Below, in pieces: positions 4,733 through 57,536 of a DNA stretch of 64,000 nt. The stretch's first letter is position 1; each line of letters opens with the position of its first letter. The DNA lies in IMG/VR virus record IMGVR_UViG_3300046758_000611, positions 96,001-160,000 of that record; one strand, 5' to 3'. The DNA comes from a virus. The translations under genes were made by a program, and so were the position numbers. The notes under the pieces are model-generated. The model made no database searches, was not told the origin of the DNA, and was given only the letters and a program-made list of their open reading frames with translations.

Positions 4733-6514
4733 TTAAACCTTTCTCCAGTTGCCCCCTATTGTACCCACACCACCACTAATTTTTTGATATTTATAGTTAG
4801 TAATAGTTTTGGATGTAAAATTAATTAAAACAATATTTGCCAAATCGGACTCAGTTGCATCCTCCCATAGACTATTTAGTTGTTCACTATAAACAAGTTG
4901 AGTTTCGGAATCTGCCCAATCACTTACATGAAATGTGCGTTCTTCACTTTTAACACTAAAGCAGGTTTCTGTTTGAAATACTTCTGCTAAATTACAAGTA
5001 TCTATTGTGCTTGGGTATGTGGGACGATCAAGTAATACAATTCTATCATCGTCAATAGCATGAAATACAGGTTTTGAATAAGCACCAACACTTCCGTCAC
5101 CAGTTCTTCTAAAAAAGGGATTATGCAATGTACTGTTTCTAAATGGAGTTATTTCTCCAAAAATATCCTTAAATTGATCTTCTTGTTGTGGTGTGGTTAC
5201 ACTTTCAGGGAAAGAAGCACTTTCAGTTGGACTTAAATAATTGGATATTTCGTGTGATGTATAATCATAAATAGTATTTCTAACGATCCCCGTTTTTAGA
5301 TTTGGGTTAATATTAGATTGATTATTAATTTCATAAGCATCAAGGTAGTATGTATATCCTTTCTTAAAAATTTTATCTACTCCAGTTGGTTTGTCAAATT
5401 TTATCATCCCACTTGTTTGGATTTGAAAGTAGTCTGATGTGGCCACAATAACCATACCAAGAATTTCGGAAGCATATGCATCTTCACCATCAGGTAAATT
5501 ATTTGAATCTGTTTTCTGTGCGGCTGCGTTACTTAAAACATATGGTGACTCCCCTGTGGCAGCCCCAAGGTTGTCTGGTTTTACTATTTCAGGATTCTCA
5601 TCTGAATATATAACGATTCCATCTGAGTTGATTCTTGGTTGGTGGTTTCGTTTTACTCTTACAATATCTCCAACTTTTATGTCACTACATGATGCAGTAT
5701 ACTCTATAATAAACTTTTTTGCCTCTTCTTCGTCCCCTTCACATATGAGTCCACGATAGTTCACAATTACTCCAGATTGCTTTCCGGTTGCAATGAGCAT
5801 TGGTTTTGATACATGAACTCCGGTTGTTTGTAGTGAGGTTGATGGATCAAATTCAGCAAGACATCCTTGTGTACCTAGAAAATATGTTCTTCCGTCAACT
5901 AACTCACTCTGAAGAGGGGGTTCATTACCAGACAATGTTTCGTTTTCAATAAAGACAAGTTCTTCAAAGTCAATGTGACCATTGAATACAATGTTTATAT
6001 AGTGTTCTGTTTCAGATGAGTTTTCAGATTCAACCTGTTTAATCTTACGAATAATACCAACGGCTTCTGCACTATCAACATCACCAGATGTGGCCTTTTT
6101 GTATACAACCTGTCCTGTTGAAATAACCCCACGTGTAATTACGTCACCAACTCTGTAGTTCTCTATTGGATCAAAGTTTGAAATATTTACAGAAATCTCG
6201 GCTGCTCCAGGTGCATCTGTAAACTCTAGACCACTTGCGTCATCTTTGATTTTAATATACCCCCCTTCAAATCCTGTGTATTCATTGGGGACATCGGCAA
6301 GGTTCTTTAAGTTTATACCAACATCACCCTGTTGAAGTGTTGCGAGTTCCGATGCCAGAGTTGACGCCGATATTGCTTTAGTTTCACCGGTTGAAGATGA
6401 ACCATATGATGGAACAGCATCACGATCTACTACAAGTAAGAGATCATTAGATGATAGTGGATCTGAATCTCCTCCTAATAGTTTCTTTAAATCTGTAATT
6501 TTTTGGTTTGCCAT
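4733..6514 (-). CDS. putative virion structural protein (tail fibre-like)
   Basis: MANQKITDL N-terminus typical of phage fibre proteins, an LKNLADVP..Y motif, and two copies of the VGD...SKP module. Confidence 0.6.
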   Translation of the reverse strand: MANQKITDLKKLLGGDSDPLSSNDLLLVVDRDAVPSYGSSSTGETKAISASTLASELATLQQGDVGINLKNLADVPNEYTGFEGGYIKIKDDASGLEFTDAPGAAEISVNISNFDPIENYRVGDVITRGVISTGQVVYKKATSGDVDSAEAVGIIRKIKQVESENSSETEHYINIVFNGHIDFEELVFIENETLSGNEPPLQSELVDGRTYFLGTQGCLAEFDPSTSLQTTGVHVSKPMLIATGKQSGVIVNYRGLICEGDEEEAKKFIIEYTASCSDIKVGDIVRVKRNHQPRINSDGIVIYSDENPEIVKPDNLGAATGESPYVLSNAAAQKTDSNNLPDGEDAYASEILGMVIVATSDYFQIQTSGMIKFDKPTGVDKIFKKGYTYYLDAYEINNQSNINPNLKTGIVRNTIYDYTSHEISNYLSPTESASFPESVTTPQQEDQFKDIFGEITPFRNSTLHNPFFRRTGDGSVGAYSKPVFHAIDDDRIVLLDRPTYPSTIDTCNLAEVFQTETCFSVKSEERTFHVSDWADSETQLVYSEQLNSLWEDATESDLANIVLINFTSKTITNYKYQKISGGVGTIGGNWRKV

Positions 6515-36161: not shown

Positions 36162-38669
36162 ATGTACCAAAATATATTCGTAAGCAAAAAGGACAACACA
36201 ATTTATTTGTGGGATGATAAACAAGGTTTAGTAACCTACAAAAACAAACCATACGCATACAGAAAGTCTCCGAACGGAATGTATCGTAGTATGTATGGTG
36301 ACAAGTTAGAAAAGGTAACTAAGTATCGGTATGAAGATGCAGGTTTGTTTGAATCAGATGTTCCTATTGAAACACGTAACTTAATTGACCTTTACGAAGA
36401 TGACGATGAACCAAGTACAGGTCATTGTGTATTAAACTTCGATATTGAGGTTAGTATGGAAGGAGAGTTGCCTGACACAGAACGAGCAAACAATCCTATT
36501 ACTTCCATTGCGTATCACGATAGTTGTTCTAATAACTATGTGGTTCTTGTTTTAGACAAGGAAGATAAAATCACCGACTATTCTAATGATGAAGTTTCGG
36601 TTTATTCTTATGATACAGAACGAGCAATGCTTGAACACTTTCTTGATTTTTATCAAGAGATTAGTCCGACAATATTGACCGGTTGGAACATTGATTACTT
36701 TGACGTTCCTTATTTGTATCGTAGACTCGCAAGAGTTTTAGGGCAAGGTGATGCAAATCGTTTGAGTCCTATTGGACACGCATATTATCATCAGTTCAAG
36801 AAACGTATTGTTATTGCAGGTGTTAGTTGCTTGGATTATCTTGCGTTATACAAGAACTTTACATTTAGTGTTGAACCAAGTTATCGTTTGGATGCAATTG
36901 GTCGTAAAGAAGTTGGTATTGGTAAAGTTGAATACGAAGGTAATCTTGATGATTTGTTTTCACAAGATATTGAGAAGTTCATTGAATACAATTTGAACGA
37001 CGTAAAGATTGTTGTTGAGATTGATAGAAAGATGGAACTCATTGAATTGACTCGTAGCATTTGTCACGTTGGACACGTTCCGTATGAAGACATTTTATTT
37101 TCGTCTCGTTATCTTGAAGGTGCATTGCTTACTTATCTTCGCAGACACAATCTTGTCGCACCAAATAAAGACCCAAATGGTCGTGAACGATTCAATGAAA
37201 TTAAAGGTGACGAATCCAAGAAGTTTAGTGGAGCATATGTGGCTGCACCGACACCTGGCAAATACAAGTGGGTGTTTGACTTGGATTTAACTTCTCTGTA
37301 TCCATCTATTATTATGTCCACGAATATTTCACCAGAAACCAAAGTGGGTGTTGTTGATAATTGGAGTCCCGAGAAGTTTTGTGACGGAGAACAAACCGAA
37401 GTTGGATTTCGTGGAGAAACATATTCAGCAGATGAGTTCAAGGCATTTCTAAAAGATAACAATCTTTCTATCAGTAGCAACGGAGTTATGTATACCAAGA
37501 ATAAGGTCGGACTTATTCCTGCGATTCTTGATCAATGGTTCAACCAACGTGTTGAGTTCAAGAACAAAATGAAAGAGTATGGTAACTCAGGTGACGATGC
37601 AAAGTATGTGTTCTATAAAAGACGTCAGCACGTGCAAAAGATTCTTCTTAATTCGTTGTATGGTGTTCTTGGTTTGCCTATCTTTCGGTTTTATGATGTG
37701 GACAATGCAGAAGCAGTTACGACCACAGGTGTGTCCGTGATTAAGTTTAGTCGCAAGATTGCGAATCACTATTACAATAAAACACTTGGTGATACAGAAG
37801 ATCATTGTATATACATTGATACCGACTCGGTTTTCTTTTCAGCATTGCCTATCGTAGAAAAAACGATGCCTCACGTTGATGTAAAGAACGATGACGAAAT
37901 GGCAACTGCAATTCTTGAAGTTGCGGGTGATGTACAAAACTTCATCAATAAAAGTTATGATGTTATGGCAAAACGTTTCTTCAACATTGAAGAGCATCGT
38001 TATGACATTAAACAAGAAGTGATTGCCAAAGCAAGTATGTGGTTGGCAAAGAAACGATATGCACAATGGATTATCAACAACAACGGTGTTACTTGTGACG
38101 AATTGGAAGTTAAAGGTCTTGATGTTGTGCGTAGTAGTTTTCCAACTCGGTTTCGTAAGTTTATGACGGAAATCCTCAAAGATATTTTGAAGGATGTGCC
38201 GAAAGAAGAAATTGATGAAAAGATTGTTACACTCAAAAAGCAAGTTAAGAACGAGTCGGTTGATGATATTGCAAAGACGAGTGCAGTTAAAAATATATCC
38301 AAGTATGTAAAGATGATGGATAAAGGTGCAGTTATGGGTGAGTGTGCAAAAAGTACACCCGCACACGTTAAATCAAGTATCATTCACAATCAGTTTCTCA
38401 AAAAGTTTAAAATACAAAGTGAACCTATTCGTAATGGTGAAAAAATTAAGTGGATTTATTTGAAGAACAATGAACTTGGTTTAGATGCACTTGCGTTTCG
38501 TGGTTATGAAGACCCACCACAACTTATGGAGTTTATTGAGAAGTATGCAGATAAAGATAAATTGTTTGAACGAGAACTTGAAGGAAAGTTGCGTGACTTT
38601 TACGATGCACTTAGTTGGGACTTTGCAAGTGAGAATCTTGCAACTGCTCAAAAGTTTTTTGCTTTCTAA
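36162..38669 (+). CDS. family B DNA polymerase (T4 gp43-like)
   Basis: Exonuclease motifs FDIE, GWNIDYFD and YNLND; polymerase motifs DLTSLYPS, KILLNSLYG, YIDTDS and KKRY. Confidence 0.97.
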   Translation: MYQNIFVSKKDNTIYLWDDKQGLVTYKNKPYAYRKSPNGMYRSMYGDKLEKVTKYRYEDAGLFESDVPIETRNLIDLYEDDDEPSTGHCVLNFDIEVSMEGELPDTERANNPITSIAYHDSCSNNYVVLVLDKEDKITDYSNDEVSVYSYDTERAMLEHFLDFYQEISPTILTGWNIDYFDVPYLYRRLARVLGQGDANRLSPIGHAYYHQFKKRIVIAGVSCLDYLALYKNFTFSVEPSYRLDAIGRKEVGIGKVEYEGNLDDLFSQDIEKFIEYNLNDVKIVVEIDRKMELIELTRSICHVGHVPYEDILFSSRYLEGALLTYLRRHNLVAPNKDPNGRERFNEIKGDESKKFSGAYVAAPTPGKYKWVFDLDLTSLYPSIIMSTNISPETKVGVVDNWSPEKFCDGEQTEVGFRGETYSADEFKAFLKDNNLSISSNGVMYTKNKVGLIPAILDQWFNQRVEFKNKMKEYGNSGDDAKYVFYKRRQHVQKILLNSLYGVLGLPIFRFYDVDNAEAVTTTGVSVIKFSRKIANHYYNKTLGDTEDHCIYIDTDSVFFSALPIVEKTMPHVDVKNDDEMATAILEVAGDVQNFINKSYDVMAKRFFNIEEHRYDIKQEVIAKASMWLAKKRYAQWIINNNGVTCDELEVKGLDVVRSSFPTRFRKFMTEILKDILKDVPKEEIDEKIVTLKKQVKNESVDDIAKTSAVKNISKYVKMMDKGAVMGECAKSTPAHVKSSIIHNQFLKKFKIQSEPIRNGEKIKWIYLKNNELGLDALAFRGYEDPPQLMEFIEKYADKDKLFERELEGKLRDFYDALSWDFASENLATAQKFFAF

Positions 38670-39565
38670 TGGCAAACTATAATCAAATACTTCCAATCAG
38701 AAAAGATTGTAGAATTGATGAACAATTCGGTTGGTTGCCTTTGAGTGTATTAGAACCAAGTCGTGATCATCGTGAACAATGGCCGGAAGCATATCTTGAT
38801 GATGGAATTCGTGAAACAAAAAGAAGTAAAGATGCAGAGAATCTTCCTGGTCTTAGATTCAGTGAGTTTCACGCAGGATTAGCAGAGCAAATTCTTCGTT
38901 ATTGGAGTATGCGTGGAAGTGTAATCGTAGACCCATTTTCAGGTCGTGCTACACGTGCTATGGTTGCAAGTAAACTTGGTCGTAACTATCAAGGTTACGA
39001 AGTATCAAAGCAAACATATGATCGTTGTATGAAGCATTTTAAAAAGTTCAAGGTATCACCCAAACTTTTTAATTGTGATGGAACAGAGATGTTATATACA
39101 CGAAATGAAACTGCGGATTTGGTATTTACTTGTCCTCCGTATCACAATCTTGAAAAATACGAAACTGCAAAAAATCAATTAAGTGAATGTGAAACATACG
39201 AAGACTTTATGACTCAAATTCAAAAGTGTGGTAAAAATATAAATCGTGTTTTGAAACCAGGAGCATTTTGCGTATGGGTTGTTTCAGATTGGAGAGATAT
39301 GACAGGTAGTGGTCTTCGTAGTTTTCATTCGGACTTGATTACTGCATTTGTAAACGAAGGAATGATTCACCACGATACAATTATTATGAAGAATCTTAGT
39401 CCGTTTGCTTATGTTCAATGTGCGAAAGTAGCAAGCAAAAGATACACAAGTAAAATACACGAATATATTATGGTTTTTCGCAAAAAAGGTGAATATGAAA
39501 TACCCGATTATTGTGAGCAGGACGAACTGCGTGTTAATTCAAATAAGTTTTTTAGTTATGAATAA
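38669..39565 (+). CDS. DNA amino methyltransferase (motif I before motif IV)
   Basis: DPFSGRAT, FTCPPY.NLEKY, RVLKPG and HEYIMVF motifs. TAATG overlap with the polymerase stop. Confidence 0.85.
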   Translation: MANYNQILPIRKDCRIDEQFGWLPLSVLEPSRDHREQWPEAYLDDGIRETKRSKDAENLPGLRFSEFHAGLAEQILRYWSMRGSVIVDPFSGRATRAMVASKLGRNYQGYEVSKQTYDRCMKHFKKFKVSPKLFNCDGTEMLYTRNETADLVFTCPPYHNLEKYETAKNQLSECETYEDFMTQIQKCGKNINRVLKPGAFCVWVVSDWRDMTGSGLRSFHSDLITAFVNEGMIHHDTIIMKNLSPFAYVQCAKVASKRYTSKIHEYIMVFRKKGEYEIPDYCEQDELRVNSNKFFSYE

Positions 39566-40988
39566 AATAATCAATGGAGATAGTTTGAAAGTCCTCAAGA
39601 AACTTGAGGACGAATCAGTAGACTTGGTGTGTACAGACCCACCTTATGGATACTCGTTTATGAATCGTGATTGGGACAAAGCAGTTCCTGCATTAGAAAT
39701 TTGGCAAGAGTGTTTACGAGTTTTGAAACCAGGAGGATTCTGCTTCGTTATGTCAGCACCACGTTCAGATGTACAAAGTCGTATGATGGTTCGTTTAGAA
39801 GATGCAGGATTCAATATCGGATTCACTCCGATTTATTGGACATACGCAACAGGATTTCCAAAAGCACATAATGTGGCAAAGACGGTGGACAAACAACTTG
39901 GTAAAAAAAGAAAAGTTATTGGAAAATACAAAACTCCCGAAGGCAACCAAGAACTAACTACATATAACAATTGGAAGGATAGTGACACGCAAGAAAGAAG
40001 AACACCCGATATAACTGAACCTGCATCCGATGAAGCAAAAGCACTTGAAGGTTCTTATGTAGGTTATCAACCTAAACCTGCGGTAGAAGTTGTGCTTGTC
40101 GCAATGAAACCAATTATAGAAAAAACCACCACTGAACAAGCAATGAAAAATGGCAAAGGAATTACTTGGTTGGACGATTGTAGAATTCCAACAGATGAAA
40201 GTTTAGATGGTGGAGCATATGCAAAAAATCCAACACCACGTGAAGGAAAAGATATGTGGACTTCCGACAGAAAAAAAGAAACCAAGTGCTTTGAACGAGG
40301 TGGTGCAGGAGAATATAAACAACCAGACGGAAGATTCGCAGCCAATCTAATTGTACAAGACGATGTACTTAATGATGGAGTAAAACGAAGCAAAGGAAAA
40401 CACACAGATAGTGGAAGTGCATCTGGTGGTATTTGGCAAGAAAGCACAGGCAAACCAGCAGGAAGAACTTACGGAGACGAAGGATCGTTTTCTCGTTTTT
40501 ACGATTTGGATTCTTGGTGGAAATCACAAATACATAAATTGCCCGAAAGTGTTCAAAAGACTTTTCCTTTTATGATTGTCGCAAAAGCAAGTAAGGCAGA
40601 AAAAAACAAAGGTCTTGAACATCTTCCTAAAAAGAAAAGTTCTTCAATGCCGGGAAGAAGAAATGCAGAAGATATGAGCAATAGCAAAATCGACCACGAT
40701 GTTACTGGTAGATTTGTCACGGAAAAACAAAATGTTCATCCAACCGTTAAACCAATTGAACTAATGAGTTATTTGATAACACTTGGAAGTCGTGAAAATG
40801 ATGTGGTCGTTGATCCGTTTGTTGGAAGTGGAACAACTTGCATAGCAGCCAAAATGCTTGATAGAAAATACATCGGAATAGAAAAAGAAAAGGATTATGC
40901 AATCATTGCCAAAACTCGTCTTAAAGATGCAGAATCTCCCAACCAAGCAAGTGAGAAAAACAAAAGCAACGAGTTCTTTGCTTTTTAA
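39558..40988 (+). CDS. DNA N4/N6 methyltransferase, beta class
   Basis: GDSL..LK, TDPPYG, RVLKPGG, HPTVKP and DPFVGSGTT motifs. Start moved to ATG 39558. Confidence 0.92.
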   Translation: MNKIINGDSLKVLKKLEDESVDLVCTDPPYGYSFMNRDWDKAVPALEIWQECLRVLKPGGFCFVMSAPRSDVQSRMMVRLEDAGFNIGFTPIYWTYATGFPKAHNVAKTVDKQLGKKRKVIGKYKTPEGNQELTTYNNWKDSDTQERRTPDITEPASDEAKALEGSYVGYQPKPAVEVVLVAMKPIIEKTTTEQAMKNGKGITWLDDCRIPTDESLDGGAYAKNPTPREGKDMWTSDRKKETKCFERGGAGEYKQPDGRFAANLIVQDDVLNDGVKRSKGKHTDSGSASGGIWQESTGKPAGRTYGDEGSFSRFYDLDSWWKSQIHKLPESVQKTFPFMIVAKASKAEKNKGLEHLPKKKSSSMPGRRNAEDMSNSKIDHDVTGRFVTEKQNVHPTVKPIELMSYLITLGSRENDVVVDPFVGSGTTCIAAKMLDRKYIGIEKEKDYAIIAKTRLKDAESPNQASEKNKSNEFFAF

Positions 40989-40989
40989 A

Positions 40990-41586
40990 ATGAAACAAAC
41001 TAAAGTATTTATAGAAATCGGAACTTCTAATTTTAATACACTCGAAGTATTAGCAGAACAGGGTTGGTCTGGTATATTTGTAGAACCAGATAAATGGTAT
41101 TTATCTCAAATAAAAAGATTTAAACATTGTCTATATGATAATAGTGCAATATTAGACTTTAATGGTGAAACAGAGTTCGTTAATTACGATGCCGACTGGT
41201 TATCAAACAATGAAGCAGGTGACTTTATGTGGAAACGTGGTGTCGGTAATACACATCCTACTATTAATAATATGAAATTAAATCCAGAATGGCCTACTAT
41301 TAAATTCAATGTACAAGTTAAAACTTTGAATAAATTAGTAGAAGAATATGATGTAGAACAAATTGACTTTTTAAAAATTGATATTGAAGGACAAGACCCA
41401 AAAATATTGTACGCATATGATTTTTGTGTAAGACCAAGTAAAATTAAAATGGAAATTATTCACGCAAATTCATATGGAATTAATACAACAGATTTTAAGA
41501 ACTATATGTTAAAAAACAATTATTCTGTTTATTGTGAAGATGATTACGATACCCAAGATATTTGGTTTTTTGACAATTTAAAATAA
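40990..41586 (+). CDS. FkbM-family methyltransferase
   Basis: FIEIGT, GIFVEP and [10 protein letters not shown] motifs. Start moved to ATG 40990. Confidence 0.85.
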
Positions 41587-41593
41587 TAAGAAT

Positions 41594-42712
41594 ATGGAAC
41601 AAAATTATACAAAACTAGCAGACCTTCTTGTAAGACATAGTGTGTCGTTACAGAAAGGAGAAAAGGTATTAATAGACAACACAGAAGTGCCGGAAAATAT
41701 GACGATTGCACTTGTTCGTGCAGTTCGTGAATACGGAGGAATACCTTTTGTACAAACATCGCAAAGTCGCATAGGTCGTGAAGTTATGCTTCATGCAACC
41801 AAAGAACAAATGGAAACCTTTATGAAGTTCAGTATGCCTAAGATTCAAGAAATGGATGCTTATATTGCTATTGCAGGTTCTCATAATATATACGAAACAA
41901 GTGATGTTGATCCTGATATCAAAACAATGATGTCCAAGATCACTAAACCATATCTTGATTATCGTGTAAACGAAACTAAATGGTGTATTTTAAGATGGCC
42001 ACATCCTGCTATGGCACAACAAGCAAATATGAGTACCGAAGCATTTGAAAACTTTTACTTTGATGTTTGTACATTTGATTATGCTAAATTTAATCCTGGT
42101 ATGAGCAATCTGCAAAAAAGAATGCAGAACGCAGATAAAGTTCACATTAAAGGTGATGACACAGATTTGCGTTTCTCTATAAAAGGAATTAATGCAGTTG
42201 CGTGTGGTGGTACTCATAATATACCAGACGGAGAAGTATTTAGTTGTCCAATTAAAGATAGTGTTGAAGGACACATTCAGTTTAATGCCCCAACAATTTA
42301 TCGTGGAATTGACTTTGACGGAATTCGGTTGGAATTCAAAAAAGGAAAGATTATCGATGCTACTGCAAATAGTGATACAAGCACCGAGTCATTAAATGAA
42401 ATTCTTGATAGTGATGACGGAGCAAGATACATTGGTGAGTTTGCTATTGGATTTAACCCATATGTTACACATCCAATGCGTGATATTCTGTTCGACGAAA
42501 AAATAGGTGGTAGTTTTCACTTTACCCCCGGTCAATGCTATGATGATGCAAGCAATGGAAATGATTCACAGGTTCACTGGGATATGGTAAAAATACAACG
42601 ACCAGATTATGGTGGTGGTGAAATTTACTTTGACGATGAACTTATTCGAAAAGATGGAGAGTTTGTTGTTAATGATTTGATACCACTCAATCCAGATAAA
42701 TTACTAAAATAG
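41594..42712 (+). CDS. M29 aminopeptidase (AmpS/PepS family)
   Basis: [28 protein letters not shown] and N.SQVHWDMV motifs. Confidence 0.93.
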
Positions 42713-42715
42713 TAG

Positions 42716-42744
42716 TTGACGAATGTATACGTATTTAATATAAT
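42716..42744 (+). promoter_or_regulatory. sigma70-type promoter
   Basis: TTGACG-17 nt-TATAAT, ending 6 nt before ATG 42751. Confidence 0.8.
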
Positions 42745-42750
42745 ATATTT

Positions 42751-43134
42751 ATGTTTTACGAAGATTTATTTGAATTAGAAGATGAGTATATAGAAAAGCA
42801 TAATAAGTACACCTCCGGGTTTAGTTCTATATTTGAATTAAAACGAGAAAAAAAGTTTTATGCATTATACTCTGCACTTACAACGTGCCACGGAATCATG
42901 ATTGGAAAAACGTTATGTAATTATAATTTATGCGATATTAAAAAAATGAAACCAAGTGAACGTATTTTAGAAGTTTCTTATTCAGATATAATTCACTTTT
43001 TTGATATTGAAAGTTTGATGGATGCAAAATTAAATGACCACTCATTTTCAATTAACAATACAAAAAATGAAAAAATTGATTTAATACCCGTACAGATTAG
43101 GAGTATGATAACAGATGGAAAAATATATACCTAA
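42751..43134 (+). CDS. hypothetical protein
   Basis: 127 aa ORF directly behind a consensus promoter. Confidence 0.6.
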   Translation: MFYEDLFELEDEYIEKHNKYTSGFSSIFELKREKKFYALYSALTTCHGIMIGKTLCNYNLCDIKKMKPSERILEVSYSDIIHFFDIESLMDAKLNDHSFSINNTKNEKIDLIPVQIRSMITDGKIYT

Positions 43135-43372
43135 CGAAAAACCAAATATACACATACTCAGCATAGAGGACGATGAAAACGGAAACCCAAAGTTTTCGTA
43201 TGAAGTTAATGATGCTTTCATCGAAATGATTAAAAAAGAAAAAAAACTTAACAATATCGACGAACAATCAATAACAAATTACATAACGGAACTACTAGAA
43301 AATTGTTCTAATGAAAAAAATGGTTATGGGTATAAAAAAGTAGATTTAACAGATAATAAAATTGACAATTAA
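43115..43372 (+). CDS. hypothetical protein
   Basis: 85 aa ORF overlapping the previous stop. Confidence 0.55.
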   Translation: MEKYIPNEKPNIHILSIEDDENGNPKFSYEVNDAFIEMIKKEKKLNNIDEQSITNYITELLENCSNEKNGYGYKKVDLTDNKIDN

Positions 43373-43397
43373 CAATTAAAATAATAATATATAAACT

Positions 43398-44123
43398 ATG
43401 AAAAAAGATAAAGTACTACAATTCATTTCTCGTTACAATCTTAATGGTAACGTAGAATCAGTTAAGTGGGAAACTAACGGAGACAACGTTTGCGAAACCA
43501 CCTTCATTACCGATGACAAAAGTGTTCTCGGCAAAGTATCTGCAAAGGACTTTGAACTCACAGAAGGTGAAGTCGGTGTTTATGATACTGCAAAGTTGAA
43601 GCAGTTGTTGTCAGTCGTTGGTGACGAGATTAATGTTGAGGTTGTTGAAAAGAACGAAAAGAATGTCAGCATTAATGTTTCAGATGACACAACAAGTGTT
43701 AATTTCATGCTTGCTGATTTAGCAGTAATTCCTAACGTGCCTGCACTAAAAGACTTGCCAGATTTTGATCTGCAAATTCCTTTTAGCAATGACTTCGCAA
43801 AGAAGTTTGTTCGTTCTGCAAGTGCATTAAGTGATTGTGATACATTTACAATTGTTCCATCTAAGGACGGAATTCAATTGGTAATTGGTTATTCTACTAT
43901 CAATAGCAATCGTGTTTCTTTGAATGCGATAACAGAGGGTAACGGCACAATCACAGACCCCATTAGTTTTTCCTCGAAGTATTTCAAGGAAATTCTTAAT
44001 GCAAATAGTGACTCTGAAAAGAGTGTTCTCAATGTTAGTTCAAAAGGAATTGCAAGCATTGATTTTGAAGTCGGTGACTTCCGTAGTAGTTATTACTTGG
44101 TTGAAATTCAAACAACCGATTAA
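43398..44123 (+). CDS. DNA polymerase sliding clamp (gp45/PCNA-like)
   Basis: 241 aa, acidic, with GVYD..KL..LL and a C-terminal S.YYLV. TAATG-coupled to the clamp loader. Confidence 0.8.
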   Translation: MKKDKVLQFISRYNLNGNVESVKWETNGDNVCETTFITDDKSVLGKVSAKDFELTEGEVGVYDTAKLKQLLSVVGDEINVEVVEKNEKNVSINVSDDTTSVNFMLADLAVIPNVPALKDLPDFDLQIPFSNDFAKKFVRSASALSDCDTFTIVPSKDGIQLVIGYSTINSNRVSLNAITEGNGTITDPISFSSKYFKEILNANSDSEKSVLNVSSKGIASIDFEVGDFRSSYYLVEIQTTD

Positions 44124-45079
44124 TGAATTTCTTAGAAGAAGCAACAAAGTCTCCAGTTGAATCGGAAAATAGTCTTTGGGTTGAGAAATATCGACCCAAA
44201 GACTTATCTGATTATATCGGAAACGAACCTTTAAAGAAACGAGCTGCTTCGTGGATTGAGTCGAAAGACATTCCACATTTGCTTTTGTATGGTAAAGCAG
44301 GTACAGGTAAAACTACACTTGGTAAGTTGATTACAAAGCAGATTCCGTGTGATCATTTGTATATCAATGCAAGTGACGAAAACAATGTTGATACCGTGCG
44401 TACCAAGATTAAGTCATTCGCAAGCAGTATGGGATTCAATGATCTTAAAGTTGTATTGCTTGACGAGTGTGACTTTCTTACAGGCAATGCTCAGGCTGCG
44501 TTAAGAAATCTAATGGAGCAGTTTAGTATGACTACTCGTTTCATTCTTACTTGTAATTACCACGAAAAAATCATTGAACCGATTGTCAGTCGTTGTCAAA
44601 CATTCAACATCGTTCCTCCTAATCGTAAAGATGTTGCAGTTCATCTTGCCAAGATTCTTGCTAAACAAGAAATCAAAGCACAACCAGATGATATTGCATT
44701 GATTGTAAACAAAGGTTATCCTGATATTCGTAAGGTGATTAACAATGCTCAACAGAATAGCATCAATGGCACTCTTGAGATTATCAAAGAAGACCTTATT
44801 GAAGGTGACTATAAGTTAAAGTTGTTGGACATTCTAAAGAATGCAAGTAAAGACAAAAAGAATGCTTGGCTAACTGCTCGTCAACTTATTGCAAATGAAA
44901 AGATAAATGACTTCACAGATGTTTACAAGTTTTTGTTTGATAATGTAGATGAGTATGCTCCTGGTAAAAGTGCAAACATTGTTATTATGCTTGATCAACA
45001 AACTTACCACGATAGTTTGGTGGTTGATAAAGAAATTACATTTGCATCAACCATCGCACAAATCGTTCAAACACTATGA
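44123..45079 (+). CDS. clamp loader AAA+ subunit (gp44/RFC small subunit-like)
   Basis: LWVEKYRP, GKAGTGKT, INASD, LDECD, AQAALR and SRC motifs. Confidence 0.95.
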   Translation: MNFLEEATKSPVESENSLWVEKYRPKDLSDYIGNEPLKKRAASWIESKDIPHLLLYGKAGTGKTTLGKLITKQIPCDHLYINASDENNVDTVRTKIKSFASSMGFNDLKVVLLDECDFLTGNAQAALRNLMEQFSMTTRFILTCNYHEKIIEPIVSRCQTFNIVPPNRKDVAVHLAKILAKQEIKAQPDDIALIVNKGYPDIRKVINNAQQNSINGTLEIIKEDLIEGDYKLKLLDILKNASKDKKNAWLTARQLIANEKINDFTDVYKFLFDNVDEYAPGKSANIVIMLDQQTYHDSLVVDKEITFASTIAQIVQTL

Positions 45080-45214: not shown

Positions 45215-45247
45215 AAAAGAACCAGTCTTAGGATTGGTTCTTTTTTT
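45215..45247 (+). terminator. intrinsic terminator
   Basis: AAAAGAACCAGTC-TTAG-GATTGGTTC followed by a T7 run. Confidence 0.85.
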
Positions 45248-56894: not shown

Positions 56895-57536
56895 TTAAGT
56901 AAGAATTTCATCAACCATTCCGTACTTCAAGCAAGTTTTGGCATCCCACCACAAATCATGTTTTAGAATTTCATCCATCTTTGTTTTTGGAATCTTAGTT
57001 TTTTCTTCGTATATTTCTTTTATACGTTTCATAAGATTATCTGAATTTTTCATGTCATCCTGAAGTTCTTGATATTTTCCCCAATGCTGAGAACTAAGTT
57101 GGTGGACAAGCATATATGAATTTTCACCAATGAATCGTTGTGTTCCACAGACACTCATAATTGTACCCGCACTAGCCGCACATCCATCAATGTATGTATA
57201 TATGGGTGTTTTTGACTGATTCATGTAATCAATGCTACCAAATGCAGCGAATACACTACCACCATAACTATTAATTCTTAATCTAATCGGAATACCCACA
57301 TCAAGACCAAGTTTCATAGAAATCATTTGCATTTCTCTGTCTAACCTAGATATTTCTTTATTAAGATTAAAATTTTCCTTCATACCAACACTCGAATAGA
57401 AGTAGATAATATTATCATCACCTTCTACAGTATCCATCGATCCTGCCTCGGCATTTTTTGACTTTGGACTAACCTTCTTTTTTGGAGAAACCTTTTTTTT
57501 AGGTTCTACATTTTCATTAAATTCCCAATTATACAT
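56895..57536 (-). CDS. clpP: ClpP-like protease
   Basis: INSYGGSV, DG.AASAG (catalytic Ser), MLVHQ (His) and D.W..A...KYG.VD. Confidence 0.88.
   Translation of the reverse strand: MYNWEFNENVEPKKKVSPKKKVSPKSKNAEAGSMDTVEGDDNIIYFYSSVGMKENFNLNKEISRLDREMQMISMKLGLDVGIPIRLRINSYGGSVFAAFGSIDYMNQSKTPIYTYIDGCAASAGTIMSVCGTQRFIGENSYMLVHQLSSQHWGKYQELQDDMKNSDNLMKRIKEIYEEKTKIPKTKMDEILKHDLWWDAKTCLKYGMVDEILT

Follow-up and report, generated by a model that had tools for sequence, protein, structure and literature searches.

A polymerase-type C-terminal peptide on DNA-modifying enzymes of a T4-like phage lineage and its predicted docking on the sliding clamp

We analyzed a 64,000-nucleotide stretch of DNA (the window), which covers bases 96001-160000 of a phage genome that consists of a single contig of 170,221 bp and contains a T4-like replication module (IMG/VR record IMGVR_UViG_3300046758_000611). 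Among named phages, Microcystis phage Mel-JY01 is the nearest, its DNA polymerase being 47% identical. In this module the gene for the family B DNA polymerase (PolB, gp43-like) is followed by two genes for DNA methyltransferases (MTases), MTase1 and MTase2, and all three proteins end in a short Phe-Phe peptide of the same type. The peptide is rare in this genome and conserved in homologues, and in related phages it is enriched on DNA-modifying enzymes. A preliminary description of the window had proposed that it tethers the MTases to the sliding clamp of the phage. The in silico evidence from conservation, family enrichment, and a docking model supports this proposal, and we consider it probable (about 0.75) that PolB and both MTases dock on the phage's own clamp via the shared peptide.

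The C-terminal motif shared by PolB, MTase1, and MTase2

According to the translated open reading frames (ORFs), the last residues are QKFFAF in PolB, NKFFSYE in MTase1, and NEFFAF in MTase2, encoded at positions 38646-38669, 39539-39565, and 40965-40988, in each case up to the final base of the gene. The whole 170-kb genome was scanned with a greedy set of 172 ORFs comprising 54,565 residues. The pattern [NQ]xFFx[FYW] occurred three times, always at these three C termini and at the end of no other protein, with a chance expectation of ~1.2 occurrences anywhere and 0.011 at a C terminus. Looser aromatic ORF ends of this genome were also scanned with PHROGs and made no case for additional clamp clients; as the matches were an HD phosphohydrolase, an HNH endonuclease, glycosyltransferases, the large terminase, and an ATPase, no further clients are claimed. 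The tails, which read [NQ]-[KE]-F-F-x-[FY], do not show the spacing of a canonical PCNA-interacting peptide (PIP) box, Q-x-x-[ILMV]-x-x-[FY]-[FY], and have no hydrophobic residue three positions ahead of the aromatic pair. At the DNA level, the strings common to the three tails are only of the AAGTTTTTT or TTTGCTTT type, synonymous swaps are present, and the longest nucleotide sharing amounts to 9-13 nucleotides, as predicted from the AT-rich codon bias.

MTase1 and MTase2 reached PF01555 scores of 84.9 and 111.6 bits, respectively, at a gathering cutoff of 26.7, and the motifs CPPY, DPPY, and DPFxG are invariant in the alignments of their homologues. Judged by these sequence features, both are N6/N4 DNA methyltransferases of the PF01555 family. 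In MTase1, motif I (DPFSGR, around residue 88) precedes CPPY (residues 155-158), and in MTase2, which probably begins with the ATG at 39558 overlapping the MTase1 stop, DPPY (residues 27-30) precedes motif I (DPFVGSG, residues 419-425). Because the two enzymes are permuted differently, they are not recent paralogues. In both, the peptide is placed at the extreme C terminus, off the folded domain, and is preceded by a variable linker. The Pfam envelopes reach only to residue 285 of 298 in MTase1 and to residue 452 of 476 in MTase2, the predicted local distance difference test score (pLDDT) of the AlphaFold2 model of MTase1 (85.8) falls to ~50 over residues 291-298, and in the alignments of both families the polar linker ahead of the aromatic end is unalignable. 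The statements of the preliminary description that three consecutive coupled genes end in one motif, that the codons differ, that the MTases belong to different permutation classes, and that the motif sits on a tail past the catalytic fold were thereby all borne out.

The genes of PolB and MTase1 meet in the sequence TAATG, and those of MTase1 and MTase2 overlap by 8 nucleotides. Such overlaps represent translational coupling, by which the MTases would be produced along with the polymerase.

Conservation of the tail and its distribution in related phages

At 80 of 80 IMG/VR loci, PolB relatives with mostly ~53% identity to this PolB end in [EQ][KQ]FF[ASTGN]F, a single relative having one additional residue. 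Farther out, the polymerase tails read SKFFNFK in Mel-JY01 and GSFFE in gp43 of cyanophage S-RSM4. A terminal di-aromatic tail was found in 112 of the 120 homologues of MTase1 (50-99% identity), with variants including KFFSF, QFFDF, KFWE, NFW, EWW, and KFF, and an FFx[FLY] end in 118 of the 120 homologues of MTase2 (59-99% identity). The background frequency of a terminal di-aromatic tail in this genome is 10 of 166 ORFs, the three proteins included. In the MTase2 alignment a variable polar linker of 9-22 residues is followed by FFxF or FW, and F473 is invariant. Retention of the di-aromatic end next to a diverging linker indicates purifying selection on the peptide.

For an enrichment analysis, we clustered 1,582 ORFs, taken from the genome studied here and from 85 related loci, and obtained 450 families. 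Of 19 MTase-like families, 14 had a terminal x-F-[FW] tail, which is all that many members of the clade possess, vs 8 of the 430 other families (Fisher P = 2.7e-17). Conservation in homologues and a low frequency at the ends of unrelated proteins, both of which the preliminary description had expected of a functional tail, were thus observed. The tailed MTases comprise PF01555 enzymes of several unrelated sizes and both permutations, a Dam enzyme (PF02086), and a 207-residue S-adenosylmethionine-dependent methyltransferase. Among the eight other tailed families are Mom (PF25680), in which 28 of 54 members end in NFW, a TAGT DNA glycosyltransferase (PF20691) ending in NKFW, a GNAT protein ending in EKFFQF, and an Asn-synthase-like protein ending in KKFWG, all of them known or likely DNA modifiers, as well as the 496-residue protein ending in SNKFF that is described below. 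The Mom, TAGT, and GNAT carriers led us to widen the reading from methyltransferases to DNA-modifying enzymes in general; by family assignment, the tail marks enzymes acting on DNA bases generally in this clade. A search of this genome for the Mom family PF25680 gave no match, though the control genomes gave none either.

A candidate for a new clamp client is a protein of 466-496 residues encoded beside the clamp or clamp loader genes at three loci (L044, L103, and L104) and directly 3′ of the clamp gene in L044 and L104. It ends in SNKFF (496 residues, L044), IKFFEL, or KHTWF and had no Pfam or PHROG match; its likeness to GT-B glycosyltransferases in a protein atlas is a lead only.

The modifying enzymes carry the peptide of their cognate polymerase, and it tracks the polymerase tail across lineages, with an imperfect register. 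In coliphage RB49 (164 kb), the back-translated pattern DLFDI-stop matched only twice, and the reversed-pattern control did not match at all. The two matches were the end of gene 43 (SLTDLFDI) and the end of the annotated DNA methyltransferase RB49p143 (TLSDLFDI), which is separated from gene 43 by 59 kb and flanked by baseplate genes 8 and 9. As the polymerase and a distant methyltransferase alone share this end, the tail appears to follow each lineage's polymerase. In the marine loci L096 and L104, PolB ends in RFF, and enzymes of the MTase1 family and other MTases end in EWW, DFF, or KFL. The tails are NEFFSF (PolB) and EQFFDF (MTase) in L102, and NKYFDF (PolB), NKFFE, and NKFFEIE (two MTases) in L103, a 293-kb contig. 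In places the register does not match, with KFW and EFF tails beside FFxF polymerases.

A broader proposal, to which we give even odds, is that the polymerase-type tail serves as a general address label for phage-DNA-modifying enzymes and tracks the polymerase tail of each lineage, with FFxF or FF/WW in the marine T4-like clade and DLFDI in RB49. The carriers include MTases, which represent three or more Pfam families and the two permutations of PF01555, Mom, TAGT, GNAT, the Asn-synthase-like protein, and the glycosyltransferase-like protein next to the clamp. If the proposal is true, clamp-coupled modification during replication would be a widespread anti-restriction strategy, and the tail would be a sequence-only predictor of new DNA-modifying enzymes, also in metagenomes.

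Two further observations concern individual tails. One of the four PF01555 methyltransferases of Mel-JY01 (L090:1417-2730) has the end NIAKFFNMDKKEN, which resembles the PolB tail SKFFNFK. The MTase1 homologues P0098 and P0112 end in NDLFA and GDLFTEIEVF, that is, with a T4-like DLF rather than FF, which hints that one MTase family may exchange its tails to match the resident clamp.

A shared tail could also be left behind by recombination, if MTase cassettes inserting at the 3′ end of polB copied the last codons of the polymerase and the peptide were functionless on the MTase. The junction between polB and the clamp gene is indeed a recurrent MTase insertion site (L011, L052, L055, L059, L072, and L073-79), and in L011 polB and the next-door MTase gene are identical in their last 18 nucleotides. 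An origin of this kind accounts for the acquisition of the tail but not for its retention in the great majority of MTase1 and MTase2 orthologues despite linker divergence. Moreover, tailed MTases are encoded upstream of polB in L025, L044, L048, L057, L062, and L067 and several genes away from it in L055, L096, and L102-L104, the distance in RB49 is the 59 kb given above, and in the genome studied here the DNA of the tails differs, synonymous swaps included. As near-identity to the polB 3′ end is not general and the orthologues show no decay of the tail, recombination scars were rejected as a full explanation, and we regard this explanation as very unlikely.

The sliding clamp and the predicted docking of the MTase2 tail

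In the preliminary description, clamp and clamp loader genes had been located at 43398-45079. Sequence searches did not settle the identity of the first of these ORFs (43398-44123): Pfam and PHROGs returned either nothing, as was the case for Pfam, or a family of unknown function, and a PDB profile search gave T4 gp45 as the top but weak match (E value, 0.05). The ORF is 30% identical to the one directly 3′ of PolB in Mel-JY01. Its identity was settled by a fold search, in which the AlphaFold2 model (pLDDT 91.3) matched PCNA in Foldseek with template modeling scores of 0.69-0.76 and a probability of 1. By its predicted structure, the ORF is a two-domain PCNA fold beside the clamp loader, a gp44-like AAA+ protein whose gene overlaps the clamp gene by 1 nucleotide. 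The location given for the two genes was therefore correct.

A prediction of the complex of clamp and tail, which had been suggested along with the proposal, was performed with the clamp trimer (alignment of 30 sequences), residues 437-476 of MTase2, and three controls. The complex with the MTase2 tail obtained a score of 0.72, compared with 0.00 for the best of the three controls, and passed the same mark as 58 of 80 solved complexes and 2 of 110 mismatched pairs had done. Contact agreement between the runs was at least 80% and the pLDDT of the partner at least 58. In the model, F473, F474, and F476 as well as K467-S470 (all within residues 467-476) contact one clamp subunit at residues 37, 39-42, 44, 112-118, 120, 216-218, 233, and 235-238. 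This predicted site corresponds to the interdomain-loop pocket used by PCNA clients, so that the MTase2 tail is placed in the canonical peptide pocket. Of the 21 clamp residues of the predicted interface, 15 are invariant or nearly so in the 30 clamps, vs 31% of the residues overall (P = 8e-5).

These results suggest the following mechanism. The C-terminal peptide [KE]-F-F-x-[FY] would be the clamp-interaction peptide of this phage lineage, and PolB would grip the PCNA-like trimeric clamp by its tail, as gp43 of T4 and RB69 do with theirs. The MTases would carry the peptide on a flexible linker past the catalytic fold and insert it into the hydrophobic pocket that the PolB tail would also use, formed on a subunit by the interdomain connecting loop and the C-terminal strand of the clamp. 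If the MTases bind in this way in the cell, they could ride on clamps at or behind the fork, scan the DNA in one dimension, and methylate the nascent duplex processively, which would keep pace with very fast phage replication and might protect the DNA from host restriction.

The shared peptide might instead address the proteins to a partner other than the clamp, such as the protein that binds single-stranded DNA (SSB) or the helicase, or might be a degron for a phage ClpP-type protease. ClpP-type genes (PF00574) adjoin the clamp loader gene in L102, L103, and L104, and an ORF of the window resembles ClpP, by its C-terminal sequence only. A degron on a replicative polymerase would be odd, however, and the C-terminal tail of T4-family gp43 is an established clamp epitope, to which LDFL-like, clamp-binding type the RB49 tail also belongs. 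The predicted docking in the canonical pocket with zero-scoring controls and the fact that this pocket is the most conserved surface of the clamp likewise speak for the clamp, and we consider another partner unlikely.

Alternatively, the tail could bind the clamp and have a regulatory role, with MTases and polymerase competing for sites or with leftover clamps timing late events. The T4 clamp has an additional function in activating late transcription, via the same peptide on gp33 and gp55, and on a trimeric clamp with three identical sites clients have to compete or share. The recovered clients, however, overwhelmingly act chemically on DNA bases, which is better explained by access to the substrate, and we consider a regulatory role very unlikely.

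Several points weigh against tethering of the MTases to the clamp. The docking run used our own alignments and a trimer, unlike the calibration of the tool, and its pass may reflect memory of solved PCNA-peptide complexes; as similar complexes have been solved, it shows likeness and is not proof that this pair binds. A positive-control client could not be supplied, since phmmer searches of this genome with T4 and S-RSM4 gp55 as queries detected no gp55 homologue (gp33 was not queried). The one case published so far of a phage DNA modifier on the clamp, claimed for T4 alpha-glucosyltransferase, was not reproduced (see below). In addition, three MTase-like genes of the genome studied here have no tail (Table 1); two of the proteins stop at the last strand of the fold, and the third is encoded in the structural module. 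Tails are also absent from three of the four PF01555 genes of Mel-JY01 and from the S-RSM4 methyltransferase, and none of T4 Dam, alpha-gt, and beta-gt ends like gp43. The occurrence of untailed MTases in several phages indicates that the tail is not required for phage methylation; it is a lineage-specific rather than a universal feature.

The coordinates of the genes and tails are summarized in Table 1. The segment at 40990-42712, which encodes an FkbM-type methyltransferase and an M29 aminopeptidase, is gene-free in most relatives, where the clamp gene directly follows polB. A promoter and terminator scan gave counts no higher than in shuffled sequence. No terminator-like hairpin was found from polB to 42712 apart from one weak match within MTase2, and one is present downstream of the clamp loader gene. 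In the related marine phages L096, L098, and L104, the gp32 (SSB) homologues have another conserved peptide at the C terminus, [ED][ED]LF[DSN]K, which might represent a second motif of this kind for interactions in the replisome.

Table 1. Genes, C-terminal tails, and other features in the window and in related loci (positions without a prefix refer to the window)
Feature	Position	Strand	Remarks
PolB, family B DNA polymerase (gp43-like), 835 residues	36162..38669	+	Pfam PF00136, PF03104
PolB C-terminal tail QKFFAF	38646-38666	+	full end ...LATAQKFFAF-stop
MTase1, DNA methyltransferase, 298 residues	38669..39565	+	PF01555, match ends at residue 285
MTase1 tail SNKFFSYE	39539-39562	+	outside fold; full end ...RVNSNKFFSYE-stop
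MTase2, DNA methyltransferase, beta-class, 476 residues	39558..40988	+	PF01555 residues 21-452, large insert
Weak terminator-like match within MTase2	40473-40492
MTase2 tail SNEFFAF	40965-40985	+	full end ...KNKSNEFFAF-stop
FkbM-type methyltransferase	40990-41586	+	PF05050; no tail
M29 (thermophilic-type) aminopeptidase	41594-42712	+	PF02073; no tail
Two small ORFs between MTase2 and clamp	42751-43134, 43115-43372	+	neither with tail
Sliding clamp subunit (gp45/PCNA type by predicted fold), 241 residues	43398..44123	+	AlphaFold2 and Foldseek; proposed docking platform
Clamp loader large subunit (gp44-like AAA+), 318 residues	44123..45079	+	Pfam AAA, DNA_pol3_delta2, Gp44_lid; phmmer T4 gp44 4e-27
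Terminator-like hairpin downstream of clamp loader	45215-45244
ORF resembling ClpP	56895-57536		C-terminal sequence only
PF01555-like gene without tail, 532 residues	22497-24095		stops at last fold strand (EPIFVFYKK)
Gene with weak PF01555 match, without tail, 406 residues	32637-33857		stops at last fold strand (EPIWTWKKV)
MTase-like gene without tail	G000:9694-10449		in structural module
Mom, tailed	L010:5014-5790
TAGT, tailed	L011:522-1331
Asn-synthase-like and GNAT, tailed	L064:3847-5319, 5310-5834
Candidate client beside clamp or clamp loader genes, 466-496 residues	L044:7967-9457, L103:3688-5124, L104:17665-19065
ClpP-type genes adjoining clamp loader	L102:16685-17269, L103:5146-5787, L104:19986-20588		PF00574
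gp32 (SSB) homologues	L096:6912-7676, L098:4621-5364, L104:7059-7814		end [ED][ED]LF[DSN]K

Comparison with known clamp clients

To outrun host restriction, a fast-replicating phage has only minutes in which to modify hundreds of copies of its genome. How modification matches the speed of replication has been largely unaddressed, and the sole proposed link to the clamp, that of T4 alpha-glucosyltransferase, is disputed. A peptide linking methyltransferases, Mom, and glycosyltransferases to the clamp would provide a concrete mechanism and a prokaryotic-virus counterpart of the DNMT1-PCNA interaction; what would be new are the clients, on a known clamp toolbelt mechanism. The short tail would be a simple experimental handle, for which RB49 in E. 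coli is a tractable model, and Mel-JY01 as a cultured phage could offer an isolate-based test system.

A close parallel is found in T4 and RB69. The C-terminal peptide of T4 gp43 is the established gp45-binding epitope, the polymerase's clamp peptide is also used by gp33 and gp55, and the tails are interchangeable in T4 (PMC2988020). The T4 tails that we read, SLDFLFG in gp43 and SLDFLYEAND in gp55, have SLDFL[FY] in common. As in the phage studied here, a short hydrophobic or aromatic peptide at the extreme C terminus, preceded by a variable linker, is shared by the polymerase and other clients. The T4/RB69 epitope is an acidic LDFL, whereas here a basic or polar residue is followed by F-F-x-F, and the T4 clients are transcription factors, whereas here they would be DNA methyltransferases and other base-modifying enzymes.

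The nearest precedent, and the only one that we found in phages, is T4 alpha-glucosyltransferase, whose binding to gp45 was proposed from in vitro data, but a 2025 preprint, in which the enzymes carried C-terminal His tags, detected no such interaction, either in vitro or in vivo (10.64898/2025.12.06.692756). As in our proposal, this enzyme would modify DNA on the clamp during replication, but that earlier proposal was not based on a shared motif, and the enzyme has no gp43-like tail. The preliminary description knew of no report of clamp-tethered methylation in phages. This stands for methyltransferases, as our literature searches on clamp-bound methyltransferases and DNA modifiers yielded no report of a clamp-binding motif in a methyltransferase from phages or bacteria, but not for clamp-coupled modification as such, which had already been proposed for T4 alpha-glucosyltransferase.

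With the PIP box, here Qxx[ILM]xx[FY][FY], and with QL[SD]LF, the beta-clamp motif of bacteria, the tails share an aromatic pair, predicted to enter the hydrophobic pocket below the interdomain connecting loop of a clamp with PCNA fold. They differ in having no Q-x-x-hydrophobic spacing and in being strictly C-terminal, often as a mere x-F-[FW]-COOH. In eukaryotes, a short motif recruits the methyltransferase DNMT1 to PCNA and thereby couples methylation to replication (PMC9690074). The phage proteins show no homology to this system, and DNMT1 uses a canonical PIP box, whereas the phage enzymes carry the polymerase's own tail. The purpose also differs, being epigenetic maintenance in the case of DNMT1 and, as proposed here, escape from restriction in the phage. 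A further eukaryotic parallel is provided by the PCNA-linked N6-methyladenine (6mA) maintenance complexes.

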